In this document: positions 2,679 through 59,288 of the stretch, one piece after another
Layout: each line of letters opens with the position of its first letter
Numbering within the stretch: position 1 is the stretch's first letter
Assembly: GCA_044375675.1 (NCBI GenBank)
Contig: JBILMD010000002.1
Location: forward strand, 41,104-105,103
Direction of reading: 5' to 3'
Origin: Alphaproteobacteria bacterium
Lineage (GTDB): Bacteria; Pseudomonadota; Alphaproteobacteria; JAJTHO01; CANGYM01
DNA: 64,000 nt
Made by a program: the position numbers and the translations under genes
The notes under the pieces: model-generated
What the model saw: only the letters and a program-made list of their open reading frames with translations
Database searches by the model: none
What the model was told of the DNA's origin: nothing

Positions 2679-3392
2679 ATGCGCCCCGTTATCGGATTGA
2701 CATTGGATTCTGAGGATGAAGGGGGCGGCTACTCCGCCATGCCTTGGTACGCCCTGCGACAAAATTATTGTCATGCTGTGCATCAGGCGGGGGGCTTGCC
2801 CCTATTATTGCCCCATTACCCCGAAGAGGCTGCGCACTATGCGGACCGTCTGGATGGTTTGATTGTCACGGGGGGGGATTTTGATCTGGACCCGCGACTT
2901 TATGGGGAAAGCACCATTCACGAGCGCGTCACCATCAAACACAGGCGCACCCAGTTTGAATGGGCGTTGGTGGAGGCCATGCTGCGTCAAGACAAACCCG
3001 TTTTGGGCATTTGTGGGGGTCAGCAGCTATTGGCCGTTATTTTGGGGGCCACGTTGATTCAGCACATCCCCGATGCTCTGCCCTCGGCCTTGGCCCATGA
3101 ACAACCCAACCCCCGAACAGAATCTGGACACGCAGTTACCGTTGTTCCTGATTCGTTGCTGTTTCATATCGTTCAAAAGAAAACCTTGCATGTGAACTCA
3201 GCCCATCATCAGGCTGTTCGTTCTGTCCCAGACACGCTGATTGTCAATGCCTTTGCGCCGGATGGAATTATTGAGGGCATCGAAGCCCCGCGCTATCGTT
3301 TTTGTCTTGGCGTGCAGTGGCATCCTGAATATCATGTCGACAGCGCCGATGGGCGTTTGTTTGATTGTTTGATTCAGGCAGCAACGGCATGA
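2679..3392 (+). CDS. class I glutamine amidotransferase / peptidase C26 (gamma-glutamyl-GABA hydrolase PuuD-like)
   Basis: 237 aa with ATG start. GICGGQQLL catalytic-Cys motif and a C-terminal His/Glu region typical of the C26 family. Confidence 0.8.
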   Translation: MRPVIGLTLDSEDEGGGYSAMPWYALRQNYCHAVHQAGGLPLLLPHYPEEAAHYADRLDGLIVTGGDFDLDPRLYGESTIHERVTIKHRRTQFEWALVEAMLRQDKPVLGICGGQQLLAVILGATLIQHIPDALPSALAHEQPNPRTESGHAVTVVPDSLLFHIVQKKTLHVNSAHHQAVRSVPDTLIVNAFAPDGIIEGIEAPRYRFCLGVQWHPEYHVDSADGRLFDCLIQAATA

Positions 3393-4918
3393 AACCTTTT
3401 TTTTGGATTGCAGTCTTTTTATTGTCTTGGTGCGGCTCCTCGCTGGCGGCCCTTGGGGTGGCGTCCCCTGTGTTATCCTCCTCGCCTCTGGCAGAAACGA
3501 AGTCCTTGGATTTTGATAATCTTAGTGCGGGTCCGTCAGACCCCGAGATTCAGCCCCAGTGGTCTTTGGACAATTTTTCTGATGTTGCGGTGTCATTCCA
3601 AAACCTTGGGCGGGGACAAAAAACAGCCCTGATCCGAAATCTGATGCACCCTGTTTTGATAACCGGAACGGATGGCCCTCAGGGGCAGCCGGAACCGGCG
3701 GCGTTTCTTCATCAACGTCTTTCCGCCCTTATCGCTTTGGGGTTTGTGGAGGATGCTTGGGCCCTGTTACAGAAAATCCCAAAAGAACAGCGCCCTGCTG
3801 TTTTGCATGGGGATGCGGTGATGATCATGTTGCTGCAAAATCGCCGTGTTGATGCCTGCGCTTACGGGGATTCCATCCCTGACACGAGCGCCAAAATCAG
3901 GGCATTTTGTTTGGTGTCTGTCCAAGATACGGACAAAGCCCAGCTGCTGATGGACCTTGAGGCCGAATACAATCCCGCAGCCGCCCAAGACCCTTTTTGG
4001 GTTCTTTTAAGGCAGGTTTTGGATGATTTGCCCCCCAGCGTAGAGGTTACCGATCCCCTCTCGGTCATGTTGGCGCTTTACCAGAAAAAAGCGTTTTCTG
4101 TGTCTTCTTTTTCACCCATGGCTGTGCCGTTTTATGTATGGATTGCCAATGCGCCGTTTATGCCGATAGACACCAGAATCGCCGCAGCAGAAGCGGCCTT
4201 GGCCGCCGATGTGTTTTCTCCGTCTATGGTTCGGTCCCTATATGACGCCCATCCTGCCTTCAAGGCTGAGGCGCTGGCCAAGCCGAAAGCGACTTTAAAA
4301 ACACTGGATTCGGGATCCAAAGGGGCTTTTTTGTGGCAATGGTCTAAAAAAAATCCTTCTCGTTTATCAACGCTTATGCGTCTTCTTCCGGAAACGGGCC
4401 TTTCCCCCCAAGTTCTGGCGGGCCTTTTTGAGCCTGTTTTGCAAAACACCTCTGCTTTGAACGATGTGAAACCGTCTGCGGACCTTATTGCCGCGCTTCT
4501 TTACTTGGGGGATCAAGAGCAGGCCAAGATGCTTTGGGATCAGTTGGCACGGCAGGCGCTTGGTCAAAGTCTTGATGCCAAAAGTGAGCTTTTGAAAACA
4601 TGGGGTTATGATAATGTGTTTGATCTTAGCCCCCACATTTCAGGACACGCGGGGGGATGGCAGATGTTGATTCATAAAATGTGGGAAAAAACTGTCTATA
4701 CCCATCAGGTTGCGGTGTTGGATTATCTCACAGGCAGGGCCAAAGCCCCCCCCAGCAGCATCACCACAGGCTTTGACATTACGAAACTGTGTTTATCTCT
4801 TCAAAATCTTAAGGAATCCCCCCCAACGCGGTTAACTTTGGGGAAATATTTTTCGATGATCAAAAGTTATGCGCCCGAGCAAAAGCTTTCTTTTGCTCGG
4901 GCTGTTTATGTACCTTAA
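3389..4918 (+). CDS. hypothetical secreted Ala/Leu-rich helical-repeat protein
   Basis: ORF 3365..4918. The internal ATG at 3389 gives a clean signal peptide, MKPFFWIAVFLLSWCGSSLAALGVASP. I recognise no family. Confidence 0.6.
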   Translation: MKPFFWIAVFLLSWCGSSLAALGVASPVLSSSPLAETKSLDFDNLSAGPSDPEIQPQWSLDNFSDVAVSFQNLGRGQKTALIRNLMHPVLITGTDGPQGQPEPAAFLHQRLSALIALGFVEDAWALLQKIPKEQRPAVLHGDAVMIMLLQNRRVDACAYGDSIPDTSAKIRAFCLVSVQDTDKAQLLMDLEAEYNPAAAQDPFWVLLRQVLDDLPPSVEVTDPLSVMLALYQKKAFSVSSFSPMAVPFYVWIANAPFMPIDTRIAAAEAALAADVFSPSMVRSLYDAHPAFKAEALAKPKATLKTLDSGSKGAFLWQWSKKNPSRLSTLMRLLPETGLSPQVLAGLFEPVLQNTSALNDVKPSADLIAALLYLGDQEQAKMLWDQLARQALGQSLDAKSELLKTWGYDNVFDLSPHISGHAGGWQMLIHKMWEKTVYTHQVAVLDYLTGRAKAPPSSITTGFDITKLCLSLQNLKESPPTRLTLGKYFSMIKSYAPEQKLSFARAVYVP

Positions 4919-4945: not shown

Positions 4946-5665
4946 ATGTACGACATGACCTACACCATTCATGGGACCAGCATGGAGATTGTAGAATTCA
5001 GCCTTTTCCCCGGGCAATTTATTCAGGCTGAGATAGGGTCCATGATCTATATGGGCGATTCCATGGAGATGAAAACCGGCACAGGGGGGGGGATTTGGAA
5101 AGGCCTGAAGCGAAAACTGGCCGGTGAACGATTTTTGGTTTCCCAGTTTAAAAACCGCGGAATAGAAAAATCCTATGTCGGGATAGGGTCCTATTACCCA
5201 GGCAAAATTCAAATGATTAACCTCGGTGCCCATGATGGGGTTTATTACACACAAAAGCGGGCTTTTTTATGTGCCACGCCCGACGTGGACATCAGCATTG
5301 GCATCGCAAAGCGCCTGGGGGTGGGTTTTTTTGGGGGGGAAGGCTTCATTTTGCAAAAATATTCGGGCGAGGGAATGGTTTTTATCCACGCAGGAGGAAC
5401 GATTATCCGCAAAGTTCTGAATCACGATGAAACCCTGCAGGTGGACACGGGATGCCTTTTGGGATTTAGCGCAACGGTGGATTATAACATTCGGATGGTG
5501 AGCGGGATTATGAATCCCCTTTTCGGGGGAGAAGGGTTGTTTTTGGCGCACCTGAAAGGCCCTGGTGAAGTCATCATGCAATCCCTGCCGTTTTCTCGGT
5601 TGGCGGATAACCTGTATGCCGTTATGTCACAGTTTACCGCCACCCCCCAGAAAGACGAGGGCTAA
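4946..5665 (+). CDS. AIM24 family protein (TIGR00266/DUF124)
   Basis: 239 aa. The N-terminus YTIHGTSMEIVEFSLFPGQFIQAEIGSMIYM matches the AIM24/DUF124 pattern. Confidence 0.8.
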   Translation: MYDMTYTIHGTSMEIVEFSLFPGQFIQAEIGSMIYMGDSMEMKTGTGGGIWKGLKRKLAGERFLVSQFKNRGIEKSYVGIGSYYPGKIQMINLGAHDGVYYTQKRAFLCATPDVDISIGIAKRLGVGFFGGEGFILQKYSGEGMVFIHAGGTIIRKVLNHDETLQVDTGCLLGFSATVDYNIRMVSGIMNPLFGGEGLFLAHLKGPGEVIMQSLPFSRLADNLYAVMSQFTATPQKDEG

Positions 5666-5671
5666 GCCTTT

Positions 5672-6589
5672 GTGCTTTTGACAGTCCCCCCTAAACATCA
5701 TGGAGAGCGTCTGGACCTGTGGCTGTCAACCCTGTTGCCGGATCATAGCCGCAATCAAATCCAGCGCTGGATCCGCGAAGGGGCCGTTCAGATGGCTCAC
5801 ACAGCCCTTGCGCTGCGCCCGTCCCAACGGATTGAAAAGGGGCAAACCTTTGTCATCACTCCGCCAGATGTTCGCCCCACGGATTTGGTGGCCGAAACGA
5901 TTCCTTTGGATATTGTTTTTGAAGATGATGCCCTGGTGGTTGTCAACAAAGCGGCGGGTATGGTCGTGCATCCCGCGGTGGGGCATAGCCAAGGAACGTT
6001 GGTTCACGCCCTGCTCGCCCATTGTGGGGATAGTCTGCGCGGCATCGGGGACATAAAGCGCCCTGGCATCGTGCATCGTCTGGATAAAGAGACCAGCGGC
6101 CTGATGGTGGTGGCCAAAACAGAAAACGTCCACCGCCATTTGGTGGGGCAATTTCAGGACCGCAGTCTGAAACGCACCTATCATGCCTTGTGTTCAGGAA
6201 CGCCGCAGCCCCCCAAGGGCACCATTGTCACCCTTATGGGGCGCTCGCCCTTGCATCGGAAAAAAATGGCCGTTGTCCCTAAAAATGGCAAAGAGGCCAT
6301 CACCCATTATGAAACCCTGAAAACCTTCGGGGATCGCAGCTTGATCGTGTGTCGTCTGGATACAGGACGAACACACCAAATTCGCGTGCATCTGCAGCAT
6401 ATTGGCCATCCCCTGTTGGGGGATCCTGTTTATGGGGGACGCCGAAGTCAGACCCCTCTGATTCAGCGGCAAGCCCTGCATGCGTCCCATTTGTCCCTGA
6501 TCCATCCCATAACCCAAGACCAGATGCATTTTTCCTGTCCATGGCCACAGGATTTTATCGACGCCGTGGGGGAAACTATGCCATACTAA
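5672..6589 (+). CDS. rluD: 23S rRNA pseudouridine synthase, RluA/RluD family
   Basis: GTG start directly after the upstream stop. S4-like N-terminus (GERLDLWLS…). HRLDKETSGLMVVAKT catalytic-Asp motif. Confidence 0.85.
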   Translation: MLLTVPPKHHGERLDLWLSTLLPDHSRNQIQRWIREGAVQMAHTALALRPSQRIEKGQTFVITPPDVRPTDLVAETIPLDIVFEDDALVVVNKAAGMVVHPAVGHSQGTLVHALLAHCGDSLRGIGDIKRPGIVHRLDKETSGLMVVAKTENVHRHLVGQFQDRSLKRTYHALCSGTPQPPKGTIVTLMGRSPLHRKKMAVVPKNGKEAITHYETLKTFGDRSLIVCRLDTGRTHQIRVHLQHIGHPLLGDPVYGGRRSQTPLIQRQALHASHLSLIHPITQDQMHFSCPWPQDFIDAVGETMPY

Positions 6590-6600
6590 TCGACCTTTGT

Positions 6601-6685
<85 letters not shown>

Positions 6686-6723
6686 TGTTGAAAAAATCTT
6701 GTCTTTGTTAAGGGTCCCTTGGG

Positions 6724-7839
6724 TTAACCATGCACCAAGGGCTGATTGAAAAGGCCCTCAAAAGCAGACTCCAGACCTGAAGCCATGGCCCCGATGTCAA
6801 TTTTTCCAAAATTCTGAGCGGGGATTTTGGGGAACATTAAACCCGCATCCGACGCCAGACGCTTGGCAATGCCCATGATGCTGGATGCCTGATAATTTTG
6901 GGTTTCCATGGCCTGCGCTGCCATGTCCATAATGGGCGCAGTGTTTTTGCTGGCGATGGTGTACAGGGCGTGGCCGCTGTGTCTGTGGATGCCCATGGCA
7001 ATGGATGACAAAGAGGCTGATCTCAGCTGCCCAATGCCGTTTGCAATGTCGTTTTCATTGACATTCAGGGCTTTGGCAACATCGCGGGATTTGACCTCGA
7101 TGCTGTACTCTGCCAGCACGTCATCAATGCGGTCCATCACAAAATCGGGGTGCACCACTTGCCGGTAATTCAAAATCTCTGGCCCCGACAAAATTACGGC
7201 CTGGGCCAGCATGGTGACGGAAGAACTGATCCCCAGGACAGAGGTGAGGGTTGTAGGCGAGGTCAGCGCCACAGCCCCAATGCCGGCGGCCCCCAGCCAG
7301 AAGGAAGCCCCCCCCCGTCCCAACATCGTGAGCATGGCATAGCGTATCAGACGCTTGGGCAGCAAATGGCGGGGCATGTCCTGCATCATTTTGGTTTTGA
7401 GTTCGTCCACGGGCATCCCGCTGGCGCGGGCCATATCCAAATAATTTTGGGTTTGATCCAAAATGGGTTGAATATGATGCAGGCCTGTTTTGATCAGCCT
7501 GCTGATCACACCCCCCGCCCCCATGAGGCCCCCCAAAAAGAAGGATAAAAAGCTCGACATCAGCAAGCCCTGAATCATGGAAAAGATGCCTGCCCCCATG
7601 AGTCCTTTTTGCATGTAGGGCAACAAGGCCCCATCATGATCCAGCAAATTCATACGGGCTGCGCTGCGGCGGTTTTTTCGTTGACGGGGTTTTTTGCTGG
7701 GGGTTGCGGCGGCTTCTTCAAAAACAAAGCTGACCCCTAGGCTCTCTAAAACAGCGCGACGGGCCAGAACGTCATCCGAAATCAGCGTTTGGCCGTCGGA
7801 TTCTGGCGCGTTTTGCAAAGAGACAGGGGTTGTTGTCAT
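6724..7839 (-). CDS. hypothetical protein with basic N-terminal tract and glycine-zipper hydrophobic segments
   Basis: 371-aa ORF, normal GC. KKPRQRKNRRSAAR tract. Segments such as LMGAGIFSMIQGLLMSSFLSFFLGGLMGAGGVISRL and ASFWLGAAGIGAVALTS. No recognisable family. Confidence 0.6.
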   Translation of the reverse strand: MTTTPVSLQNAPESDGQTLISDDVLARRAVLESLGVSFVFEEAAATPSKKPRQRKNRRSAARMNLLDHDGALLPYMQKGLMGAGIFSMIQGLLMSSFLSFFLGGLMGAGGVISRLIKTGLHHIQPILDQTQNYLDMARASGMPVDELKTKMMQDMPRHLLPKRLIRYAMLTMLGRGGASFWLGAAGIGAVALTSPTTLTSVLGISSSVTMLAQAVILSGPEILNYRQVVHPDFVMDRIDDVLAEYSIEVKSRDVAKALNVNENDIANGIGQLRSASLSSIAMGIHRHSGHALYTIASKNTAPIMDMAAQAMETQNYQASSIMGIAKRLASDAGLMFPKIPAQNFGKIDIGAMASGLESAFEGLFNQPLVHG

Positions 7840-8058
7840 GCCAATCCGTGGTTAAAAAAGGTTGTCTATCAAGATCAAGAAGTCGAAAAACAAAACAATC
7901 GTGATGGACAACATTTTCTACCTTTAGTCTAGTATAATCACGTTTTTCGCGTGCGTACTGTGATGCCTGTCACATTGAGCGGCGTTATTTTTTTGTATAA
8001 ACTACCCAAAAAGGGGTGTATAATCCCCCATCCAGAACACAATGGATGTTGCTTGATC

Positions 8059-11703: not shown

Positions 11704-11846
11704 TGGGGCTTTCGTTAACCTTTTGTTAACCAGAAGGTGATTGTTTAGAAAGGTTTGGCTGCTATAGTGTTTGGGAAGTATCGGTGTTTCTGCCGCCACG
11801 TACCGTTTTTGGCTGCCGCTCGATGTGTGCTTTTTTAAGGAACTCT

Positions 11847-12494
11847 ATGATTATTGACCCTCAAGATGCTTTTAGCCAAAGAATGGCAGAGCTGCTCATT
11901 TCCAAAATGACCCATGATCTTGCTGGACCGATTGGCGCCACAGAAAATGGGTTGGAGCTTTTGGAAGAAGATGGTTCTTTTGCATCCGAGGCCCTAGCCA
12001 TTGCCCGCCAAAGTGCCCGCAATGTGTCGTCCCGACTGCGGTATTATCGTTTGGCCTATGGCTCCAGTTCGGCGTGTCAGACGTTGGACCCCAACAGCAT
12101 TAAAAAAACCGTAGAGGCTTTTTTTGGATCAGACCGTAAAGTGGACATTACATTCAGCGAAATCAATGAAATTTTGCCCAAGGAATTGACCAAGTGTCTG
12201 CTGAACATGATTTTATGCGCCAAGGATGCCCTGATGTACGGGGGAAAAATGCACATTGATTGGACAACGCAGCATATTCGCATTGCCCTAACCAGTGTTG
12301 ATCCGGCAAAACCGTTAAAAACGGGCACATTGGCCCTGATTGACAAAACAACACGACTGCCAGAGGATTTAAGTGCCTATACCGTGCAAGCATGGTATAC
12401 AGGATACTATGCATTTTCCCAAGGCATGCAAATGCAGTGTGATGGAACCGCACCCGATCAGATGATCTTTGAGGTGCGGGCGCCTCAAGGATAG
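11847..12494 (+). CDS. ChpT-like histidine phosphotransferase (HPTransfase family)
   Basis: ATG at 11847 with an AAGGA SD 6 nt upstream. ELLISKMTHDLAGPIGATENGLELLEED matches the ChpT signature (…CHDFISP…GLDLLED…) including the phospho-His. It sits immediately upstream of the CheA-REC gene. Confidence 0.7.
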   Translation: MIIDPQDAFSQRMAELLISKMTHDLAGPIGATENGLELLEEDGSFASEALAIARQSARNVSSRLRYYRLAYGSSSACQTLDPNSIKKTVEAFFGSDRKVDITFSEINEILPKELTKCLLNMILCAKDALMYGGKMHIDWTTQHIRIALTSVDPAKPLKTGTLALIDKTTRLPEDLSAYTVQAWYTGYYAFSQGMQMQCDGTAPDQMIFEVRAPQG

Positions 12495-12505
12495 GAGCAG
12501 TCGCC

Positions 12506-15223
12506 ATGGATGATGGATTATTGCAGGATTTTTTGGTGGAAACCACCGAGAGCATCGAGAAAATCGACCAAGATCTCTTGTCTTTGGAAAAAGATCCCAA
12601 CAACCCCCCGCTGATTGACAGCATTTTCCGCCTGATGCACACCATTAAGGGAACATGCGGCTTTTTGGAATTAAAACGTCTCGCCAGTTTGGCGCACGCC
12701 GCTGAAACGCTGCTGGGGAAAATGCGCGATGGGGAAAAACCCATCACGCAAGAGCCCATCTCTCTGATCCTAGAGGCCATGGATCAAGTTAAGTTTATCA
12801 TTGCCGTTTTGGAAGAGGATAAAGTCGAGCCTGAGGGCGATGATAACCCCCTGATTGCCAGTCTGGATGCCATGAGTCGGGGAGAGATCGGTGGCCCAGA
12901 GTCCGAGGCCTCTTCTGTGGACGCCTCTTCTCAGCCCATCGAACTCTCGCTCTTAGAATCCCTTGAGGAATCCTCTAACTCAGAACCAGAGACTGTTGTT
13001 GTCTCAGAAGCCCCTGCTGCGCCGTCCTTAAAAACCGTTGCCAAGGCCCCAGCGCCCGAAAAACCAAAGCCAGAGGCTAAATCTGAACCAAAAAAACCCT
13101 CAGCCGAGGATTCTGCCGAAGAAAAAGGGGGCGCCGCTGTTGATCAAACCATTCGCATCCGTGTGGATCTGGTGGAATCGTTGATGAATCTGGTTGGGGA
13201 ATTGGTGTTAACGCGCAATCAGCTGTTGCAGCTGATGCGTCAGGAACAGGATAATCTGTCGGTTTTTGCCACCCCCTTGCAGCATCTTTCCCATGTGACG
13301 TCTGAATTGCAGGATGGCATTGTGCAGGCCCGCATGCAGCCCGTGGGCAATGCGTGGAAAAAATTACCCCGCATCATTCGGGATCTCAGCGTTGAGCTTG
13401 GCAAAAAAATGGATTTGATTCTGGTGGGGGAGGAAACCGAGCTGGATCGTCAAGTCATCGAAATGATTCGCGATCCCCTGATTCACATGGTCAGAAATGC
13501 TGCGGATCACGGCGTTGAAACGCCGGCGGAGCGTTTGGCCGCTGGAAAACCGGAAACGGGTCAAATTCATCTGCAGGCCCGTCATGAAGGGGGTTATATT
13601 GTCATGACCCTAAAAGATGATGGTCGCGGGTTAAATATCGACGCGATTAAGAAAAAAGTCCTAGAAAAAGGCCTGTGTTCCCCAGAAAAACTGGCGGATA
13701 TGGAGGATGAAAAAATCCAACAGTTTATTTTTGCCCCGGGCTTTTCCACAGCGGCCACATTAACCTCTGTTTCCGGCCGAGGGGTGGGTATGGATGTGGT
13801 TTGCACAAACATCGAACGCATCGGGGGCGTGATCCAAATGGCATCCCAGCAGGGCCAAGGATCAACGTTTACCATTAAAATCCCCCTGACTTTGGCGATT
13901 ATCTCTGCCATGATCGTGGGCATAGGCGGACAACGGATGGCTATCCCTCAGCTGGGTGTCAGTGAACTGGTGCGGATTACCCCGCAGTCCGACCATAAAA
14001 TTGAGTTTCTTAAAGGCGCCCCTGTCCTGCGTCTGCGCAACAAACTGTTGCCGCTTGTGGATTTGCGGTCTCTTTTGCATCTGGAATCGGATAAGCCTGA
14101 GGGGGGAAGCACAACGATTTTTATTGTCGTGGCGCGGGTTGGGGCCAGCCATTTTGGCATGATTGTGGATCGGGTTTTTGATACCGAAGACATTGTCGTA
14201 AAACCTCTGGCCCCCATTTTGCAAAATCTGGGCGTTTTTTCTGGCAACACCATTCTTGGGGATGGTCAGGTGATTATGATTTTGGATACCAATGGCGTGG
14301 CCCAGACCTTGGGGGACACCTTAACCGGTCAGGACAGTGGTCCCACAACGCCTGCGGTTAAAAAAACCATAGCGTCTAACCTAGAGGAACAGGTTTCTTT
14401 GCTGGTTTTCCGTGCGGGGACAAAAGCCATGAAGGCCATACCGCTGGCTATGATCGCCCGTTTAGAGGAAATTGATTTAAAAACCCTAGAATACACCACC
14501 GACAAACCCGTGTTACAATATCGGGGCAGCCTGATTCCCATCGTGACCATTTCTGGTGATTATCATCTGGCGGAAGAGGGCATTGCCCCCATGCTGGTTT
14601 TTAATACAAAAAAACAAAGCGTGGGTATGATTGTTGATGAAATTATTGATATTGTTCAGGCACCGATGCATTTAACGTTGCCCAGCGAAGGCACAGGAAT
14701 TTTGGGGACGCTGATTATCAATAATCAAGCCACCGATATTGTGGATGCCTACCATCACATGCACAAAGTTGTGAACACGTGGCAGGATTCCATGCCCATG
14801 TCCACAAAGGGGGGATTTTCTTCAGCAGCCTCTAAGCGGAGTCAACGGATTTTGTTTGTGGATGACAGTGCGTTTTTTAGAAATTTGCTCACGCCCATGC
14901 TAGAGACAGCAGGCTACGCGGTTTTGGGATTTGAGGCCGCAGCGGATGCCCTTCGCGCCCTGAAATCAGATCCTGATACGGTGGATTTGATTCTCAGTGA
15001 CATTGAAATGCCGGAAATGAATGGTTTTGCCTTTGCCAAAGCGGTGACAGAGGATCCCACGCTGCAAAACATTCCTCTGATTGCCTTTACCGCCCATGTC
15101 AACAGCGATATGACCATAAAAGCCCGAAAATCCGGCTTTCGCGAGTGTGTTGCAAAATTTGATCGGGAAGGTCTTTTGTCCCATATCGCCCATTTTTTGG
15201 GCCATCATTCTGTGGCGGCGTAG
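12506..15223 (+). CDS. cheA: chemotaxis histidine kinase CheA, hybrid type (Hpt-P3-HATPase-CheW-CheW-REC)
   Basis: 905 aa. P1 Hpt with HTIKG, then an acidic Pro/Lys-rich linker, a dimerisation region, HATPase motifs (HMVRNAADHG…, GRGVGMDVV), two CheW-like domains, and a C-terminal receiver (ILFVDDSAFFRNLL…DLILSDIEMPEMNG…). Confidence 0.9.
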   Translation: MDDGLLQDFLVETTESIEKIDQDLLSLEKDPNNPPLIDSIFRLMHTIKGTCGFLELKRLASLAHAAETLLGKMRDGEKPITQEPISLILEAMDQVKFIIAVLEEDKVEPEGDDNPLIASLDAMSRGEIGGPESEASSVDASSQPIELSLLESLEESSNSEPETVVVSEAPAAPSLKTVAKAPAPEKPKPEAKSEPKKPSAEDSAEEKGGAAVDQTIRIRVDLVESLMNLVGELVLTRNQLLQLMRQEQDNLSVFATPLQHLSHVTSELQDGIVQARMQPVGNAWKKLPRIIRDLSVELGKKMDLILVGEETELDRQVIEMIRDPLIHMVRNAADHGVETPAERLAAGKPETGQIHLQARHEGGYIVMTLKDDGRGLNIDAIKKKVLEKGLCSPEKLADMEDEKIQQFIFAPGFSTAATLTSVSGRGVGMDVVCTNIERIGGVIQMASQQGQGSTFTIKIPLTLAIISAMIVGIGGQRMAIPQLGVSELVRITPQSDHKIEFLKGAPVLRLRNKLLPLVDLRSLLHLESDKPEGGSTTIFIVVARVGASHFGMIVDRVFDTEDIVVKPLAPILQNLGVFSGNTILGDGQVIMILDTNGVAQTLGDTLTGQDSGPTTPAVKKTIASNLEEQVSLLVFRAGTKAMKAIPLAMIARLEEIDLKTLEYTTDKPVLQYRGSLIPIVTISGDYHLAEEGIAPMLVFNTKKQSVGMIVDEIIDIVQAPMHLTLPSEGTGILGTLIINNQATDIVDAYHHMHKVVNTWQDSMPMSTKGGFSSAASKRSQRILFVDDSAFFRNLLTPMLETAGYAVLGFEAAADALRALKSDPDTVDLILSDIEMPEMNGFAFAKAVTEDPTLQNIPLIAFTAHVNSDMTIKARKSGFRECVAKFDREGLLSHIAHFLGHHSVAA

Positions 15224-15227
15224 TCGT

Positions 15228-15677
15228 ATGAAAACCGAAAAACACGTTCTTTTTTCCATTGGCAGCCAAATGTTTGCCATGTCTGTTTCCGATGTTACGG
15301 ATGTGCTTCATAACCCTGTATCCACACGCATCCCTTTGGCTGTGCCAGAGATCGTGGGGGTTTTGAATATGCGCGGCTATATTGTGACGGTTCTGGATAT
15401 GCGCGTGCGCCTGAATATCCAAGAGGATAAACCAAAACCGGATATCGACACCCCCATGTGCATTGTTGTGGTGTTTCGGGGCACGCGTTATGGATTAATG
15501 GTGGATTATGTTCATGATGTGGTGGATCTTTCTGCGTCCTTATCCGCCCCTGTGCCCCCGTCCTTGGATCCGTCTGTGCGTTCCATGGCCGTTGGCGTTT
15601 ATCAACATCAAAAACATCTGGTGTTGGCGCTGGATATCACTAAGATTGTGGGAATCTCTGAAACCTTGGCGGCCTGA
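15228..15677 (+). CDS. cheW: chemotaxis coupling protein CheW
   Basis: ATG at 15228 within ORF 15147..15677. The gene length (~450 nt) and the internal hydrophobic segment (GVLNMRGYIVTVLDMRVRL) fit CheW. Confidence 0.85.
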   Translation: MKTEKHVLFSIGSQMFAMSVSDVTDVLHNPVSTRIPLAVPEIVGVLNMRGYIVTVLDMRVRLNIQEDKPKPDIDTPMCIVVVFRGTRYGLMVDYVHDVVDLSASLSAPVPPSLDPSVRSMAVGVYQHQKHLVLALDITKIVGISETLAA

Positions 15678-16264
15678 TGCGGGTTATTTCCTCTCTTTGT
15701 ATTTATTGTGGGTCGTCAAAGCCCCAACCTCGTCACCAAGAACAGGCGGAAGCCCTGGCCGATATTCTGGTTAGCCAAGGCATCGATATGGTTTACGGCG
15801 GTGCCCGCGCCGGCCTGATGGGATTTACCGCCGATGCTGTGTTGTCCCGCGGCGGCCGCGTTATTGGGATCATTCCTGAGTATTTGGACAAATACGAAAT
15901 TGGCCATACAGGTGTGACAAAACTGCACATTGTGGCCAACATGCATGTGCGAAAAATGATGATGTTTGACTCTTCGGATGCATTTCTTGTGTTTCCCGGG
16001 GGATATGGCACCATGGATGAGATGTTTGAAATGCTCACTTGGCGACAGTTGGCCATGCATGACAAGCCCATTATTGTGGTGAACATCGATGGGTATTGGG
16101 ACCCTTTGGTGAAGCTCTTAGAGCATATCGTCCAGCAGGGCTATGCCAAGCCAGAAACCAAAAACCTTTTGCACATCATATCGGACGTTTCCGAAATGAT
16201 GGGTTTGTTTAAAGATATGTCGCCCCCAGATCCCACCCCGCCCAAGGTTTGGTTGCAGGCCTAA
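15677..16264 (+). CDS. LOG family protein (cytokinin riboside 5'-monophosphate phosphoribohydrolase-like, TIGR00730)
   Basis: 195 aa. PGGYGTMDEMFE and GGARAGLMG motifs. Confidence 0.85.
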   Translation: MRVISSLCIYCGSSKPQPRHQEQAEALADILVSQGIDMVYGGARAGLMGFTADAVLSRGGRVIGIIPEYLDKYEIGHTGVTKLHIVANMHVRKMMMFDSSDAFLVFPGGYGTMDEMFEMLTWRQLAMHDKPIIVVNIDGYWDPLVKLLEHIVQQGYAKPETKNLLHIISDVSEMMGLFKDMSPPDPTPPKVWLQA

Positions 16265-16287: not shown

Positions 16288-17283
16288 TTACGGTACGAGT
16301 TTTCCCCGCGCATAAAATCTGCGCATCATCTCTTCGGCCACCCCTTTGGCGGGGTTTTCAAGGGGGACGGTTTCCCACGAAAGGTCGGGTCGAAAGGGGG
16401 CAAGAGATCCTCTTGCGATCAAAGCGTCAAACAAAGCCGAAAAAGGAATATGATTTGATGGGTGAAACCGTTGCAGGGGAACGGGATAATAGGCAACGGG
16501 CCTGCCGCTGCCCAAGGCTTCGGTGAGCATACTGACAGAGTCTTGGGTAACAATTATGCGTTCGCAGCAGGCCAGGGCCCCCACAAAGGGATTGGCCTGT
16601 CCTTTTTGGCCCCAAATATAGAAACTGTGGGGTCTGCCTTTCAGGTCTTTTTGCCACAAACTTATCAGAGAGGCAGGGGTGCGGCGGCTGGTGAGGATGA
16701 TGAGAGAGCCCCCATCACGGTCTTGCATCGCACATAAATCACGGATCATTTGACGGATCATCCCATCGGTAAAGCTGTAATGGCGAGAGCTCCCCCCAAC
16801 AAAAACCGCCGTTTTGGGATAGGGCAAAAGGGCAAAATAGGGGGAAAATTCATCAAAGGCCGCAACCAGTTTCTGTCTGGTGATGCGATGGGGGGCGCCT
16901 ATTGTTCTAAAAATAGAGGGGTGCTCTGGGGCGCGATCATGGGTGGGTAAAACCACCATATCAAAATGGCTGTACCCCAGTTCAGGGCGCATGATTTGAC
17001 AAACAAAGGTCTTGCCGTCGGATTTGCGTTTTATGGCGGCGGCAATGCGTGCCTGACGGCGGCCCGCAGTAATCACAATATCTGGCCAAGGGGGGGACAA
17101 ATCGTGCTGATGGATGCCCAGAAAATTCAGGGGCAAAAATTCATTATAAAGTCTGGAAAAAAAAGTGTAACGCAGGGTTTTGATCATCACAGGGTGAATC
17201 AAATAGCTGGCCACACCGTCCACTTGGCTGTTATTGCCAGGGCGGTGATCATGAAGCCCCCAGATGATAGGTGGATTGCTCAT
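16288..17283 (-). CDS. ELM1/DUF1022 family protein (mitochondrial-fission ELM1-like)
   Basis: ORF 16288..17637, trimmed to the ATG at 17281-17283 (MSNPPIIWGLHDHRPGNNSQVDGVASYL…), which matches the ELM1 N-terminus. The longer version would overlap the divergent popZ-like gene. Confidence 0.7.
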   Translation of the reverse strand: MSNPPIIWGLHDHRPGNNSQVDGVASYLIHPVMIKTLRYTFFSRLYNEFLPLNFLGIHQHDLSPPWPDIVITAGRRQARIAAAIKRKSDGKTFVCQIMRPELGYSHFDMVVLPTHDRAPEHPSIFRTIGAPHRITRQKLVAAFDEFSPYFALLPYPKTAVFVGGSSRHYSFTDGMIRQMIRDLCAMQDRDGGSLIILTSRRTPASLISLWQKDLKGRPHSFYIWGQKGQANPFVGALACCERIIVTQDSVSMLTEALGSGRPVAYYPVPLQRFHPSNHIPFSALFDALIARGSLAPFRPDLSWETVPLENPAKGVAEEMMRRFYARGKLVP

Positions 17284-17385
17284 AGACGTGTTTTTCTTTT
17301 TGAGGATAGCCCTTGCTTTGTACGAAGAGTTGACGCATCCGTCCAGAGTGCGTATCGTAAAAAAAACACAAGGGGAAAAGCGCCT

Positions 17386-18315
17386 ATGAGTACCGCGCAA
17401 AAACAGGTTCAGGATGAAGAATCCATAGAAGGCATTTTGCTTTCCATACGGGAAATCATGATGAACGACGGAGCCGAGGAAGCGGGCGCCACCCGCACCA
17501 TGGATGATGCCCCTGTTTTGGATTTGACCCAACTGATTCGTGACAATGGTCAAATTCAGGAAATTCCCAAACCCAAAGCCCCTATCCCCGAAGATATCCT
17601 GAAAGAAATTGACAAAAATAATTTTAAAAACAAACAACTGGCCGAGTCAATCCTTCAGCAGCAAGCTGAGGCAAAAAACATGGTTTTTGAGGATCAGCAA
17701 CCCGATGCTGTCCATCAAGACTTTGTAAGTCAGGATGTTTTTGACGATCAAACTGCCCTGAATGAAATCGCGGATATGCTGGAAGAGGACTTGCCAGACG
17801 TGCAAAGCCTTTCCGAATCCCCCCAAAACGAAGAGTCTTTTTTGGAAGATGAGGACATTTTAGATATTGAAAGCAACGAAGCGCTTGAGCCCCTAAAAAC
17901 AGAAGATGATGGCGATCTTTTTTCGCTGGACATCTCAGAAGATGACGAAGCGTTAAGTTTGGATCATGAGGGTGAGGATGTGACGGAATCCCTGTTGTTA
18001 GAGTCGATGGATCAAGAGGATCTCCAGAGCGATGAAGAGGCTTTGCTGGGTCAGGATGCTTTGGCGTCATCCCTGCGGGCCTTGGATCGGTTGGATGTGG
18101 CTGTGGCCCAAACACGCTTGAAGCCCGATCCCTTGTTTGATCAGGACGATGCCATCGGGACCAGCATCCCCAGCAAATCCTTGGAAGATGTGATTGTCCA
18201 AGCCGTGCAGCCCTATCTCAAAGCTTGGTTAAACACGCATTTGCCCACCATTGTGGAACAAAAAGTTCAAGAAGAAATCCGTCGTTTGGTCAACAAAAAA
18301 TTGGGATCTTCGTGA
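17386..18315 (+). CDS. PopZ-like pole-organising protein (acidic, C-terminal DUF2497)
   Basis: ATG at 17386 within ORF 16966..18315. N-terminal SIEGILLSIREIMMND motif, long Asp/Glu/Gln-rich middle, and C-terminal LEDVIVQAVQPYLKAWLNTHLPTIVEQKVQEEIRRL DUF2497-like helix. Confidence 0.65.
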   Translation: MSTAQKQVQDEESIEGILLSIREIMMNDGAEEAGATRTMDDAPVLDLTQLIRDNGQIQEIPKPKAPIPEDILKEIDKNNFKNKQLAESILQQQAEAKNMVFEDQQPDAVHQDFVSQDVFDDQTALNEIADMLEEDLPDVQSLSESPQNEESFLEDEDILDIESNEALEPLKTEDDGDLFSLDISEDDEALSLDHEGEDVTESLLLESMDQEDLQSDEEALLGQDALASSLRALDRLDVAVAQTRLKPDPLFDQDDAIGTSIPSKSLEDVIVQAVQPYLKAWLNTHLPTIVEQKVQEEIRRLVNKKLGSS

Positions 18316-21444: not shown

Positions 21445-23031
21445 ATGATGTTTAATAACTTTATGCGCTATGCACTGCTTCCCTTATGGGTAGTTTCATT
21501 TCTGAGCAGCACAGCAAATGCTAGTGGTTACTGTATATACGATATTGCGGCACCGCAGCCTTATCTATCAGACGATATCAAAAACAATCCATTATTGGAG
21601 AGCGGTAGAGATGGAAAGGCCATACTGCCAAGTTACTGGAAAAAACTTGATGGAAGCAATCGGGTCATCGCGCATAATGACATATCTGTTTCTACAGACG
21701 AGAGCGAAAAATATGCCCGTCGCATTGCGTCCGTATTTTGGCAGTTTTCTCCTGATGATAAAATCTTCAAACAGCCGCAGTTAATTGAACCGTATGTTAA
21801 TGAACGGCATTACTCTCCATTAGAAGATAGAATATTATTTGTTGATGGAAGATGGATCGAGAAAGACGGCTCAAAAACATATCAACCGGAATTATATGAA
21901 TATGATTTTAAGTCTTCAGCTCGATTAGTTAATTCCAGCTTAGCAAACTTCCCAAGCGACGTTAGTGATATATTATGGAGCGAAGGTTTAAATGGTTGGC
22001 TGCTAACGTATACGCACCACCAACAAGATCAAGTGGCTTTATGGACAAAATCTGCTCTAAAACCACTTGATATTGATGGTGGTGTGGACATGTTAAAGTA
22101 CCTACCCAAGATTGAAAAAGTCGCAGTACTTAATCGAAGAGGATTTTATTTACTAAACCTTGATGGGTCTACGGCACTTTTTCAGGAGATCAATCCTGGG
22201 GATGATGCTGCTAATGGTTGGGATGGCCTCTACCCATTACCAAACAACTGGTTTTATGTTGGTGCAGTGGAGTATGACCACCTGTTTCAAATAATACAAG
22301 AAGGTAATGAGTGGCGAACTGGAGAATTAATCCGCTTGCGCCCGAAAGAAGGATTTTTCTTGAGCCTACTGACCAAGCTCACAGGCTTTGATAAACGAGA
22401 TAATTTAAGTTCAATCAAGAATCTTGGAGGATGGTCGTATAGCCCCCTTTTAGACACGATGATTTTTGGAGAAGCCGGCAAAATATTTAAAAACGGGAAG
22501 CTGGAAAAAATCTATTCGCCGGTCAAATTAGATTGGCCACTGGGAGATATTGAATTTGCAGGCGTCACAGCCTATTACGGAAAAGATAAAAAGGTTCACC
22601 TATACGATGGAAAAAAATGGATGGTTGCGTCTGGCCCAAAGGTTCTGCGTGGTCGTTTTTCTATCGTATCTAGTCAGAAGCGTATTTTTTACTCTACTTA
22701 TAATGATAGATATTCAACAACGCCACTTTATGAGTTGCTACAAAAAGACGGTAGCTGGGTGATTGAGTTGGTAAACATACCAGAAGAAAGCCCCGACTCG
22801 TTCACCAGATTCTATGAGCCTTTACACGGTAATGATATATTAGTGTTTACCCGTCGTTCTATTTACGCCCTGAATGGCAATAGTTGGCAGGCTATATGGG
22901 AGCCAGAAAATGGTGGTTTTGTGGATCTCACAAGCCATTTGGCACCATTAAGATTAGGCTCTGAAGCAGAGAAACAAGGGATTCTCTTTACAGCTGGTGA
23001 TACTTTCCATTGGCTTGAGCGATGTGAATAA
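21445..23031 (+). CDS. hypothetical secreted protein encoded in an AT-rich (foreign-looking) segment
   Basis: 528 aa. Signal peptide MRYALLPLWVVSFLSSTANA followed by SGYC. Lys/Asn/Tyr-rich composition. The gene and its flanks are about 38% GC in a counted sample, against high-50s % around them. No recognisable family. Confidence 0.7.
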   Translation: MMFNNFMRYALLPLWVVSFLSSTANASGYCIYDIAAPQPYLSDDIKNNPLLESGRDGKAILPSYWKKLDGSNRVIAHNDISVSTDESEKYARRIASVFWQFSPDDKIFKQPQLIEPYVNERHYSPLEDRILFVDGRWIEKDGSKTYQPELYEYDFKSSARLVNSSLANFPSDVSDILWSEGLNGWLLTYTHHQQDQVALWTKSALKPLDIDGGVDMLKYLPKIEKVAVLNRRGFYLLNLDGSTALFQEINPGDDAANGWDGLYPLPNNWFYVGAVEYDHLFQIIQEGNEWRTGELIRLRPKEGFFLSLLTKLTGFDKRDNLSSIKNLGGWSYSPLLDTMIFGEAGKIFKNGKLEKIYSPVKLDWPLGDIEFAGVTAYYGKDKKVHLYDGKKWMVASGPKVLRGRFSIVSSQKRIFYSTYNDRYSTTPLYELLQKDGSWVIELVNIPEESPDSFTRFYEPLHGNDILVFTRRSIYALNGNSWQAIWEPENGGFVDLTSHLAPLRLGSEAEKQGILFTAGDTFHWLERCE

Positions 23032-31403: not shown

Positions 31404-31573
31404 GGGGGTATCCTTAAAAATTCTAAAAACAAGTCAAAGGGGAATCCCTCTTACACGATTTTTTTGATCACCACAAGGGGGTGGTGGCATAATGTTCATA
31501 AGGATAATGGGATAGACTTGACTTTTTTTTGAAATTTAGGCCCCATGGAAAAAACGCAAGGGGACAAAACCAA

Positions 31574-32311
31574 ATGCGCGGTTTTTGGATTGTTGGATTT
31601 GCCGTGGTCATGCTGCTGCTGGGGGGCCATGGGGCTTGGGCTCAGGCCATTTCCATTGATTTTGCCGATGAAATGCAAGGCGAGGCCTCAGGACGTATTT
31701 TCCAGCTGGTGGCCCTGATTACCGTCCTCAGCTTGGCCCCATCCATTTTGGTGATGGTCACATCGTTTACGCGGATTATCATCGTGTTTTCCTTCTTACG
31801 CACGGCTTTGGGGTTGCAACAGACGCCGCCCAACGTGGTGTTGATTGGTTTGGCCCTGTTTATGACCCTCTTTATTATGACGCCCACATTAGAAGAGGCC
31901 TACACCACAGCTATTGAGCCCATGATGGCGGAAAAAATAAGCGAGGAAGAGGCCCTCAAGCTTGTGGGCAAGCCCTTTCACGCCTTTATGCGCAAACAGG
32001 TGCGGGAAAAAGACGTGGCTTTGTTTGTGAACATGGTGAAAAAAACAGAGGTGACCACGCCGGAGGCTCTGCCGTTTCGCATCCTAATTCCGGCATTTAT
32101 CCTCAGCGAGCTGCGGCGGGCCTTTGAAATGGGCTTTTTGATTTTTATCCCGTTTTTGATCATTGATATGGTGGTGTCCAGCATTTTGATGTCCATGGGG
32201 ATGATGATGTTGCCGCCAATTTCGATTTCCTTGCCGTTTAAACTGATTTTCTTTGTGCTGGTGGATGGCTGGTATATTCTGGCGGGATCGTTGGTGCAAA
32301 GTTTCGGATAG
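31574..32311 (+). CDS. fliP: flagellar biosynthesis protein FliP
   Basis: ORF from TTG 31529. The ATG at 31574 gives signal peptide MRGFWIVGFAVVMLLLGGHGAWAQ, then the FliP core (ALGLQQTPPNVVLIGLALFMTLFIMTP…). Confidence 0.9.
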   Translation: MRGFWIVGFAVVMLLLGGHGAWAQAISIDFADEMQGEASGRIFQLVALITVLSLAPSILVMVTSFTRIIIVFSFLRTALGLQQTPPNVVLIGLALFMTLFIMTPTLEEAYTTAIEPMMAEKISEEEALKLVGKPFHAFMRKQVREKDVALFVNMVKKTEVTTPEALPFRILIPAFILSELRRAFEMGFLIFIPFLIIDMVVSSILMSMGMMMLPPISISLPFKLIFFVLVDGWYILAGSLVQSFG

Positions 32312-35206: not shown

Positions 35207-35277
35207 ATGCGATGGTGGTATAAAATGATTAAAGCAATAGCAATGTTCCCTTGGTATGATCATAGTCTTGTATTGTG

Positions 35278-36969
35278 ATGGATGTTTTTTTATCTGAAAC
35301 CCCTATGTCCTTGATTGATAAAATTTTGATGGTTTTTGGTGTGCGTCGTGAATCTGCTCGGGATGTTCAGCGGCAGAGAAAAATTCGTTTTTTGTTGGAC
35401 AAATCTCCCTTACCGTCTTGGATTCGGGATAAGGGCATGGTGCTCCAGTATTGCAATTTTGCGTATGCGGATATTTTTGAAACCACGCCAGAACGTGTTC
35501 TTCAAAAACAAACTCCTTTTTATGGCGATGGGGACGCCTGTGCTTTGGCGAGAGTGGCTTTGGAGCGGGATACCCCACAATCCACCACGGCAACGGTGAT
35601 TGTGGGGGGAAAACGTCGGTTGTATGAAATCACCGAAATTCCCACATTGGACGGTGAAGCCGTAGTTGGCTATGCCAGCGATTACAGCGCCGTTGAGGAT
35701 TTACAAAGCGCCCTAGAGCGGCACATTCAGTCATCACAAGATATTTACGAGTTTCTGGGATCTGCGGTGGCCATTTTTGGGGCCGGACGCACCCTGCAGT
35801 TTTATAACCATGCTTTTGTGCAAATGTGGAAGCTTGAGGAGGAGTGGTTATCCCAAGGCCCCACAGTGGGGGAATTTTTGGATCATCTGCGCAGGCGTCG
35901 CATGATGCCAGAATCGCTGGATTTTCAAAACATGCGAAAAGAATACATGGGGATGTTCACATCCTTGCTGGAGCCCAAGCAAGCGTTTTGGCACTTACCA
36001 GATGAGCGCACCATCAAAATTACCATTATCCCCCATCCTTTGGGGGGCATTTTCTTTTCTTATGAAAATGTAACCGACCGCTTGGCTTTGGAACGCAATT
36101 ATAAAACCCTGCTGTCTGTTCATGAATCTGTGATCCAGGATTTAGAAGAGGGTCTGCTAATTTGGGGATCCGATGGGCGTATTCAAAGGATGAACACGTC
36201 TTGTTATGAACTTTTGTGTTTGGATCAGCCCAAGGATTCTTATGAGGGGATGCGCCTGCATGATCTTCTGGACTCTCTCAGGCCTCTGCTGCTAAGACAC
36301 CTTTCTGGATACCGTTGGTCTGCCTTTCAAAAACGGTTACTCGGCCGGTTTATGGGGCAAAAACCACGTCATGGAATGTTTCGTCTTAATAATGGCGTCA
36401 GATTGCGTTATGCTCTGCGCTCTTTGCCCGATGGGGCTTTTGTTTTGTCTCTTTTGCCCATGATACCGTCCTCTATCGGTACAGGGACCCACTTTGCGGA
36501 AGGTGCCATAAAAAATAACGGTGCTGCAGAAAGTCAAATCCATGATTCCATGGTTATGGCGCCTGTTTTGACGATGATGGATGCCGTTATTCCGGCTTTT
36601 CAAAATCAGTTTCAGCACAAGGGGGTCTCAATTTCCCTAAACCACAGCGGTGGATCTGATGTGACGTTGCCTCAAAAGTTGTTTGAGGATGCTATCAAAA
36701 TGCTTTTATCGCTGATTGTGCTGTGTGTTAAGCCGAAAAGTGAAGTTGTTATGACCCTTAAATTTTTGAGGGGGTATGTTATTTTGGATGTGGTTTTTGT
36801 TTTAAGCAAAGACGCGTTTCACGTGTTGCCGCGGGATCTGAAAGACTTGCCTGGGATCACCAGTCTGGCACGACAGTATAGCCAATATCTAAAACTTGAT
36901 GTAGAGTTGGGGCAGGGGGATGCTATAGAGCTATCGCTGGCTTTTTTCCCGCATCACTCTGCCTCTTAA
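35278..36969 (+). CDS. PAS-domain sensor protein with degenerate histidine-kinase-like C-terminus (no H-box recognisable)
   Basis: 563 aa. The GC is visibly lower than in neighbouring genes (sampled ~45%). Three PAS-like segments, then a C-terminal region with alternating hydrophobic segments (…VVMTLKFLRGYVILDVVFVLSKD…) that loosely resembles a histidine-kinase ATPase fold but lacks the H-box, N, G1 and G2 motifs. Confidence 0.55.
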   Translation: MDVFLSETPMSLIDKILMVFGVRRESARDVQRQRKIRFLLDKSPLPSWIRDKGMVLQYCNFAYADIFETTPERVLQKQTPFYGDGDACALARVALERDTPQSTTATVIVGGKRRLYEITEIPTLDGEAVVGYASDYSAVEDLQSALERHIQSSQDIYEFLGSAVAIFGAGRTLQFYNHAFVQMWKLEEEWLSQGPTVGEFLDHLRRRRMMPESLDFQNMRKEYMGMFTSLLEPKQAFWHLPDERTIKITIIPHPLGGIFFSYENVTDRLALERNYKTLLSVHESVIQDLEEGLLIWGSDGRIQRMNTSCYELLCLDQPKDSYEGMRLHDLLDSLRPLLLRHLSGYRWSAFQKRLLGRFMGQKPRHGMFRLNNGVRLRYALRSLPDGAFVLSLLPMIPSSIGTGTHFAEGAIKNNGAAESQIHDSMVMAPVLTMMDAVIPAFQNQFQHKGVSISLNHSGGSDVTLPQKLFEDAIKMLLSLIVLCVKPKSEVVMTLKFLRGYVILDVVFVLSKDAFHVLPRDLKDLPGITSLARQYSQYLKLDVELGQGDAIELSLAFFPHHSAS

Positions 36970-44999: not shown

Positions 45000-45039
45000 A
45001 TAATGGGGGTTATGGCAACATAACTATGACGATAAATGG

Positions 45040-45370
45040 TGTATGGAATAGGCGTTTCGGACCCGGGGGCGGAACCCGGCACCTCCACCCCAGAGCCCTT
45101 AAAAAAAAACTTTGGGGACTTTGCGGCGGGGGTGAATCAGGATCGACGGGCGTAATAAAGATATGACTTTCGTTCGGTATGGTACCGCTGTTATCGGGCC
45201 AAAACTCTAAGTGCTAACGATAACGTTACACCTCAGGCGAACCTGAAACTGGCTGCCTAACCGCGGCTTGTTTTGGATTTTCCTAGCGGTCGGGGGGCAC
45301 CGGGCAACAGAACGCCCCCACAGCTGGTTTTGATCCACAGTGGTTTCAGGACTGTTGCTTTCTTTTTGTT
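45040..45370 (+). ncRNA. ssrA: tmRNA (ssrA), two-piece circularly permuted form: acceptor piece ending ~45087, coding piece beginning 45128; outer boundaries approximate
   Basis: The 5' strand GGGGGUG (45128-45134) pairs with CACCUCC (45080-45086), including the G3.U70 wobble, followed by discriminator A. The T-arm CCGGG-GGCGGAA-CCCGG lies upstream of that. The segment GGGGGUGAAUCAGGAUCGACGGG closely resembles the E. coli tmRNA 5' end, and UUUCGGACCCGGG…CACCUCCA resembles its 3' end. Confidence 0.65.
45213..45260 (+). other. tmRNA tag-peptide reading frame: ANDNVTPQANLKLAA*
   Basis: gct aac gat aac gtt aca cct cag gcg aac ctg aaa ctg gct gcc taa, read directly from the sequence. An ANDN… start and …LAA end are the alphaproteobacterial proteolysis-tag pattern. 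Confidence 0.65.
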
Positions 45371-49476: not shown

Positions 49477-49478
49477 CC

Positions 49479-50504: not shown

Positions 50505-50506
50505 TC

Positions 50507-51522: not shown

Positions 51523-51555
51523 TATCCAAAAAATAAGAACAATAGGAGAAAAATC

Positions 51556-59222: not shown

Positions 59223-59288
59223 ATTGCCAAAGTGCCTCTACCGCTTTATAAAAGGACCGCCGAAGAAACCCAAGGAAAAAAGATAGTC

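Follow-up and report, generated by a model that had tools for sequence, protein, structure and literature searches.

Chemosensory kinases of the CheA.V architecture have been described in the literature and characterize the alphaproteobacterial F5 class of chemotaxis systems, which includes CheA1 of Azospirillum brasilense, CheA1 of Rhodospirillum centenum and CheA of Azorhizobium caulinodans. ChpT is the histidine phosphotransferase of the CckA-ChpT-CtrA/CpdR phosphorelay known from Caulobacter crescentus and Brucella abortus (structures 4FMT, 4FPP, 4QPJ), and in relatives of the organism studied here its gene shares its neighborhood with ctrA and flagellar genes. Here we analyze a stretch of DNA in which genes for both kinds of protein stand side by side: positions 41,104 to 105,103 of contig JBILMD010000002.1 (assembly GCA_044375675.1) from an uncultured alphaproteobacterium, 64,000 nucleotides that we refer to as the window and in which the genes chpT, cheA, cheW and a LOG-family gene follow one another on the plus strand. 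With a probability of roughly 75 %, in our estimate, the protein encoded by this chpT acts as canonical ChpT in a CckA-ChpT-CtrA relay, and its gene lies beside an F5 che core that is reduced and controlled by CtrA. We regard the locus as a common motility-control cluster in trimmed form rather than as a new signaling design.

The product of the first gene matches the Pfam family HPTransfase (PF10090) over residues 83–199 with 57.6 bits at a cut-off of 22.9 (E 1.4e-15), and it matches the NCBIfam ChpT models over their full length (E 9e-34 and 1e-28). Solved ChpT structures are recovered as well: 4QPJ and 4QPK (4QPJ being from Brucella) match residues 13–207 (E 1.2e-24), and 4FMT and 4FPP from Caulobacter match residues 11–195 (E about 7e-11). 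The homology to the Caulobacter and Brucella proteins is full-length and comprises both the N-terminal helix with the HDxxxP histidine, which resembles a dimerization and histidine phosphotransfer (DHp) domain, and the C-terminal HPTransfase pseudo-kinase domain, at 24–31 % identity to the named ChpTs. The phospho-accepting residue is His23 within MTHDLAGP, which aligns with CHDIISP of 4QPJ and CHDFISP of 4FMT; H23, D24 and P28 are invariant among the aligned relatives. A 215-aa homolog with the same initial methionine and an AAGGA Shine–Dalgarno sequence upstream of it support the start of the gene.

Two features set the window protein apart from the named ChpTs besides its place in a predicted operon with cheA: Its H-box reads THD (MTHDL) where the others have CHD, and it scores below both NCBIfam equivalog cut-offs (116.6 vs 240 bits for the Brucella/Rhizobiales model, 100.2 vs 225 bits for the Caulobacter model). 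Both would fit a second ChpT copy that has become dedicated to the che system, perhaps as a phosphate sink or phosphatase-like partner of the CheA receiver domain (REC), with the true chpT located elsewhere. The equivalog models, however, were made for other orders, and the shortfall shows divergence without pointing to a different fold or family. Moreover, the che-adjacent gene occupies the same rpoH/rluA…chpT…ctrA position as chpT of Sinorhizobium meliloti, every plasmid or chromid record searched holds a single ChpT-like place, and just one family of close homologs was recovered. The same ortholog is also kept in relatives without che genes at this place, in which a ChpT of 46–48 % identity is encoded beside the same NAD-kinase and GNAT neighbors. 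A dedicated paralog is for these reasons the least probable of the explanations considered here, and the evidence says, as far as sequence comparison reaches, that the che-adjacent protein is an ordinary ChpT.

The adjoining kinase gene encodes, in this order, a histidine phosphotransfer domain (Hpt), H-kinase_dim, HATPase_c, CheW, a second CheW-like domain and Response_reg, an arrangement identical to that of the F5 proteins of A. brasilense (Che1), R. centenum (Che1) and A. caulinodans. In the translation all catalytic motifs are intact: The P1 histidine lies in MHTIKG, and the N, G1, F and G2 boxes read HMVRNAADHG, DDGRGL, FAPGFST and GRGVGMD, respectively. The acceptor residues DD…D…T…K of the REC are likewise present, in FVDDS, LSDIEMP, AFTAH and AKFD. 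As in the F5 systems, cheW follows cheA and the host is an alphaproteobacterium with a flagellum. Outside the lineage of the window, the nearest CheA homologs are found in Rhodospirillales and Holosporales at 50–54 % identity. The initial annotation, made from the sequence without database searches, had named a ChpT-type Hpt protein, a CheA with two CheW-like domains and a C-terminal REC, a CheW, a LOG-family gene and a nearby PopZ-like gene; our Pfam and NCBIfam searches and, for ChpT, the solved structures bear out each of these names.

That annotation also held that a chemosensory-type kinase wired into a ChpT relay would be an unusual architecture; that the arrangement is unusual is not sustained by the comparison with relatives: chpT lies directly 5′ of a CheA.V-type cheA in every named relative that we examined. 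Azospirillum lipoferum 4B carries chpT-cheA-cheW-cheY-cheB-cheR followed by ctrA and fliI, and in Terasakiella sp. SH-1 chpT stands 5′ of cheA, with ctrA (77 % identity to Azospirillum CtrA), fliI and fliJ downstream. A same-strand chpT immediately 5′ of cheA is also found in a Magnetospirillum metagenome-assembled genome (MAG), in a Holosporales MAG, in Sphingomonas parapaucimobilis and in locus L004, which among relatives with a full operon is closest to the window lineage. Additionally, a scan of metagenome contigs, for which we aligned the C-terminal CheA portion specific to F5, returned 80 loci, the best matches to the window CheA, 44 of which include enough upstream DNA to be informative. 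In 40 of these 44, chpT is placed directly 5′ of cheA at a distance of 32–377 bp, which equally counters the notion of an unusual arrangement; it lies 3.5 kb upstream in one and is absent from three, one of them with a degenerate split CheA. The ChpTs concerned are very divergent (median pairwise identity 36 %). The usual gene order in the metagenomic loci is chpT-cheA-cheW-cheY-cheB-cheR, and in 22 of 35 informative loci cheR is followed by a convergent ctrA, the product of which shares 70–89 % identity with CtrA of Azospirillum. The locus with the split CheA (L031, 9130–10798) contains an Hpt-only open reading frame (ORF) and a CheW-CheW-REC ORF, the kinase core being missing; it has no chpT upstream and still holds cheW-cheY-cheB-cheR.

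The same surroundings can be recognized where the che operon is missing. S. meliloti, which has no che operon there, shows rpoH-rluA…chpT-REC-ctrA-fliJ, and in Sphingomonas the che operon is located inside the rpoH/rluA…chpT…ctrA neighborhood. The single-domain response regulator that S. meliloti encodes between chpT and ctrA was considered as a possible relic of CheY; with only 28 % identity to F5 CheY, this candidate was set aside. Taken together, chpT, the F5 che operon and the convergent ctrA constitute one deeply conserved block, in which chpT shares its neighborhood with ctrA and flagellar genes. The block is annotated in public records; we found no published discussion of it, although our literature search was incomplete and an earlier mention is possible. 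The window shares with the block of Azospirillum, Terasakiella, Magnetospirillum and Sphingomonas the same-strand chpT immediately 5′ of cheA. It differs in being cut off after cheW, in having no adjacent ctrA and in a chpT-cheA distance of 11 bp compared to a typical 110–380 bp.

Of these deviations in gene content, the one that sets the lineage apart is that the locus lacks cheY-cheB-cheR and ctrA. Probes for CheY, CheB, CheR and CtrA from four relatives retrieved nothing but the CheA REC when the window was searched by tblastn at E ≤ 1, and a probe for the signaling domain of methyl-accepting chemotaxis proteins (MCPs), which picks up the MCP in a control locus, found no MCP in the window at the same threshold. 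Pfam scans of all ORFs of at least 150 aa revealed no che genes elsewhere in the window. The initial annotation had stated that MCP, CheY, CheB and CheR are missing nearby, and both types of search agree with it for the window. In contrast to the F5 systems, in which these genes belong to the operon, the window carries a LOG-family gene instead of cheY, cheB and cheR, which are present in L004, L019, L021–L023 and nearly all metagenomic loci. An MCP gene occurs in just 2 of the 80 metagenomic loci; the absence of a nearby MCP gene is normal for these clusters.

A locus without cheY, cheB and cheR might be a decaying remnant, in which chemotaxis has been lost, cheA and cheW are on their way out and chpT alone is functional. 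Related lineages without any che operon and the degenerate CheA of L031, which has lost its kinase core, illustrate such an end point. What we observe in the window lineage is nevertheless hard to reconcile with decay: The ratio of nonsynonymous to synonymous substitution rates (dN/dS) of cheA and cheW is 0.05–0.07, which corresponds to strong purifying selection, the phospho-histidine, the N, G1, F and G2 boxes and the acidic pocket of the REC are intact, and flagellar genes are present in the window. Furthermore, CheA is more conserved (72 %) than ChpT (56 %) between the window and L001, a distant locus of the same type. We therefore consider a remnant very unlikely.

The four genes of the window belong together. 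They are spaced by 11 bp (from the chpT stop to the start of cheA, which has its own Shine–Dalgarno sequence), 4 bp (from the cheA stop to the ATG of cheW) and −1 bp (the cheW stop and the LOG start overlap by 1 nt in TGATG), and because the gene after LOG is convergent, they form one compact unit. L001, whose CheW is 65 % identical to that of the window, has its LOG gene in the same position and with the same 1-nt overlap; LOG is translationally coupled to cheW through TGATG in the window and in the L001 lineage. None of the 80 metagenomic F5 loci has a LOG gene. A scan of genome contigs with a ChpT alignment, whose patterns were highly specific to this lineage, returned only nine close loci. 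The same locus, with 89–98 % ChpT identity, occurs in uncultured alphaproteobacterial MAGs from Lake Mendota and from another freshwater series, and the species of the window is also represented by scaffolds of 0.4–0.5 Mb. At least four different flanking contexts, namely that of the window type and those of L012, L015 and L001, surround an intact four-gene module, which evolves under strong purifying selection (dN/dS 0.02–0.07). Owing to this recurrence and selection, the linkage of chpT, cheA, cheW and LOG is not a matter of chance.

Upstream of chpT, in an intergenic region of 143 bp, the consensus of a CtrA box, TTAA-N7-TTAA, is realized by TTAACCTTTTGTTAA 118 bp 5′ of the ATG. The 64-kb window contains two perfect boxes of this kind, with 0.78 expected. 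An identical box precedes chpT in the species-level loci L010, L011, L013, L014 and L015, and a one-mismatch form is found in L001. Between box and gene, the block TGATTGTTTAGAAAGGTTTGGCTGCTATAGT has hardly changed in eight loci, the distant L001 among them, in contrast to the diverging intergenic sequence around it; L015 retains both the box and the block despite a different upstream gene. The block probably acts as a promoter, and the predicted box would be bound by CtrA. In the F5 relatives the motif is located elsewhere, that is, not 5′ of chpT but in the chpT-cheA gap: CtrA-box-like motifs with at most one mismatch are present in the gap of 26 out of 37 loci, at a density of 4.6 per kb compared to a background of 0.14 per kb (about 34-fold enrichment), and precede chpT in just one of the 37. 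Perfect boxes occur in three of the 37 gaps, which is too rare to judge; L004 carries a perfect box in its gap. Since box-like motifs are common in the gap and rare 5′ of chpT, the ancestral arrangement appears to have had two promoters, one for chpT and, behind this gene, one with a CtrA box that drove the che operon.

These observations can be assembled into the following scheme, in which chpT is the ordinary relay gene next to a trimmed che operon. The proteins CheA and CheW would form the kinase and scaffold core of an F5-class flagellar chemotaxis system, and chpT would be their neighbor through an ancient gene order, chpT / cheA-cheW-cheY-cheB-cheR / convergent ctrA, often beside fliI/fliJ, with the che operon under a CtrA-box promoter located between chpT and cheA. 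In the freshwater lineage, cheY, cheB, cheR and ctrA presumably left the locus, LOG joined after cheW, and the gap shrank to 11 bp, the CtrA box now being situated 5′ of chpT. Because the gap has collapsed and the box stands in front of chpT, the four genes are presumed to be a single CtrA-dependent operon. With chpT dependent on CtrA, CtrA would exert positive feedback on the protein that phosphorylates it. The route of CheA signaling is probably the ordinary one, from receptors via CheW to a CheY encoded elsewhere, and the REC of CheA probably modulates the phosphate flow out of P1, an effect that has been reported for other F5 CheAs. In this scheme, the identities of the genes, their synteny, the conserved motifs and the purifying selection are established by the sequences, whereas we infer all phosphotransfer steps, the CtrA binding and the co-transcription.

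Several points weigh against this interpretation. Unlike in the known CckA-ChpT-CtrA setting, no CckA or CtrA gene was seen: Genes for CckA, CtrA, CheY and MCPs are found neither in the window nor within 10 kb past either of its ends, where no other che genes lie either, so that canonical partners are assumed, presumably encoded elsewhere in the genome. The scores below the ChpT equivalog cut-offs have been mentioned above, and the frequencies from the metagenomic survey apply to the branch of F5 systems around the window CheA and not to F5 as a whole. In addition, on the breakup of the block in this lineage chpT remained beside cheA-cheW and was parted from ctrA, a retention that a direct functional link between ChpT and CheA would predict as well.

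Such a link is the essence of a different explanation: The REC of F5 CheA exchanges phosphoryl groups with ChpT, whereby the activity of the chemoreceptor array feeds or drains the ChpT-CtrA branch; the gene order would then be conserved since the proteins are partners, and the lineage would have tightened their connection into a single operon. A transfer from CheA via its REC to ChpT had been proposed in the initial annotation, and it receives no specific support from our analysis, as ChpT persists without che genes and beside a CheA with a degenerate REC. The adjacency of chpT and cheA is kept across very divergent lineages, and such deep conservation of a gene pair often marks interacting proteins; moreover, chpT stayed by cheA-cheW through several rearrangements in which ctrA and cheYBR did not, and now lies only 11 bp away. 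ChpT is, however, found without che genes in close relatives, in Rhizobiales and in Rhodobacterales, and its retention in relatives that lack che genes indicates a function independent of CheA. In most loci, furthermore, the chpT-cheA gap measures 110–380 bp and contains a CtrA-box-like motif, which fits separate transcription units.

The receiver domain itself speaks for both sides. All of its phospho-acceptor residues are present in the window CheA, and the REC of F5 CheA is described in the literature as important and not simply as a phosphate sink. Che-type hybrid kinases are also known to feed outputs other than motility, for example Che3 of R. centenum. Yet the adjacency survives in Sphingomonas parapaucimobilis (L025), where chpT is located 60 bp upstream of a cheA (5705–8029) whose product has two CheW-like domains and a truncated REC with the acidic pair DD changed to DG and no Pfam REC match. 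The REC of the window CheA, assessed by the NCBIfam ranking of this domain alone and by hidden Markov models (HMMs) built from the same clusters, appears no closer to the receivers of CckA or CtrA than to other receivers; the median scores obtained with the same-cluster models are 56 bits for CheY, 37 bits for CheB-REC and 40 bits for CtrA-REC. The relays of RcsC-RcsD, ArcB, Pseudomonas aeruginosa ChpA and R. centenum CheA3-CheS3 resemble the window in that a kinase-attached REC is encoded beside an Hpt protein. They differ from it in the type of phosphotransfer protein, which is a four-helix Hpt in the known relays and a dimeric, kinase-like protein in the case of ChpT, and the window REC appears no more similar to their receivers than to others. 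We did not find literature that links ChpT with CheA in our incomplete search.

Given that ChpT survives the loss of che genes, that the adjacency outlives a functional REC and that most gaps are promoter-sized and hold a CtrA-box-like motif, most of the evidence other than the deep conservation of the pair and its retention in this lineage is more simply accounted for by common descent and by a motility island under joint control of CtrA. Hence, phosphoryl exchange between CheA and ChpT appears improbable to us, and we likewise think it unlikely that the near-universal adjacency of chpT and F5 cheA reflects a real phosphotransfer link between CheA REC and ChpT that was consolidated here as a minimal chpT-cheA-cheW operon. 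If it were true, chemoreceptor arrays would tune the level of CtrA~P or, conversely, the CtrA relay would drain CheA, and the minimal operon would no longer need adjacent cheY, cheB and cheR. Phosphate exchange between the REC of CheA1 and ChpT could also bear on the non-chemotaxis effects that have been reported for CheA1 mutants. With regard to the interpretation that we favor, a canonical ChpT beside a reduced F5 core, the locus alone is ordinary: It extends a common motility-control block, in trimmed form, to an uncultured freshwater lineage. The block as such, with its CtrA-box-like motifs before cheA, supports motility control as the old role of CtrA.

The features of the window are compiled in Table 1.

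Table 1. Features of the 64,000-nt window; positions are counted from its first nucleotide.
Feature	Position	Strand	Remarks
tRNA-Leu	6601-6685	+	
CtrA-box consensus TTAA-N7-TTAA, TTAACCTTTTGTTAA	11715-11729	+	predicted; in the 143-bp intergenic region 5′ of chpT
Promoter-like block TGATTGTTTAGAAAGGTTTGGCTGCTATAGT	11737-11768	+	phylogenetic footprint; −10-like TATAGT at 11763-11768
chpT	11847-12494	+	215 aa; Pfam, NCBIfam and PDB matches
cheA	12506-15223	+	905 aa; CheA.V/F5 architecture; Pfam and NCBIfam CheA
cheA, Hpt domain	12518-12790	+	Pfam
cheA, dimerization domain (H-kinase_dim)	13145-13327	+	Pfam
cheA, HATPase_c	13472-13891	+	Pfam
cheA, CheW-like domain 1	13907-14305	+	Pfam CheW
cheA, CheW-like domain 2	about 14399-14722	+	31.8 bits vs cut-off 23.5 (region scanned alone)
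cheA, REC (Response_reg)	14849-15184	+	Pfam; phospho-Asp in LILSDIEMP
cheW	15228-15677	+	149 aa; Pfam CheW, E 2e-21
LOG/TIGR00730 gene	15677-16264	+	TIGR00730, 181.7 bits; Pfam Lysine_decarbox; last gene of the module
PopZ-like DUF2497 protein	within 16966-18315		Pfam
fliP	31529-32311		standing alone
fliF-fliG-fliH(-small ORF)-flbD cluster	47806-52914		

The genes for FliP, FliF, FliG, FliH and FlbD, the last of which scores above its NCBIfam equivalog cut-off, mark the host, an uncultured freshwater alphaproteobacterium, as flagellated and point to a flagellar hierarchy of the Caulobacter type. A two-piece (permuted) transfer-messenger RNA of the alphaproteobacterial kind is encoded at 44970–45351 (+) with the tag peptide ANDNVTPQANLKLAA, in keeping with the affiliation of the host. 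A gene of the TrcR family (transcriptional cell-cycle regulator) at 60442–60999 (+) fits the alphaproteobacterial cell-cycle toolkit. The gene convergent with LOG, at 16288–17637 (−), belongs to the ELM1 fission-factor family and adjoins the PopZ-like gene.

Two further loci concern possible signaling proteins. A 564-aa protein encoded at 35275–36969 (+) combines three PAS domains with roughly 220 C-terminal residues for which there is no Pfam, NCBIfam or PDB match; it could be a degenerate kinase-like regulator, and a DivL-like role is a guess. Just past the left end of the window (L110, 11165–13857), a DUF2336 gene is followed by a gene for a PAS-HisKA-HATPase histidine kinase without a receiver, which may be a kinase of the PleC/DivJ type belonging to the window organism.

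Among the remaining ORFs, four of 372–528 aa have no Pfam or NCBIfam match (3365–4918 (+), 6724–7839 (−), 21445–23031 (+) and 54481–55599 (−)); gene calls on related contigs include the first, second and fourth. The long ORF at 59238–60236 (−) is probably a shadow ORF, as related contigs call LpxD on the plus strand at this place (59073–60314 (+)). Finally, besides ELM1, two more families named after mitochondrial proteins are represented in the window, a Tim44-like domain and AIM24, at 1787–2497 (−) and 4946–5665 (+), respectively.

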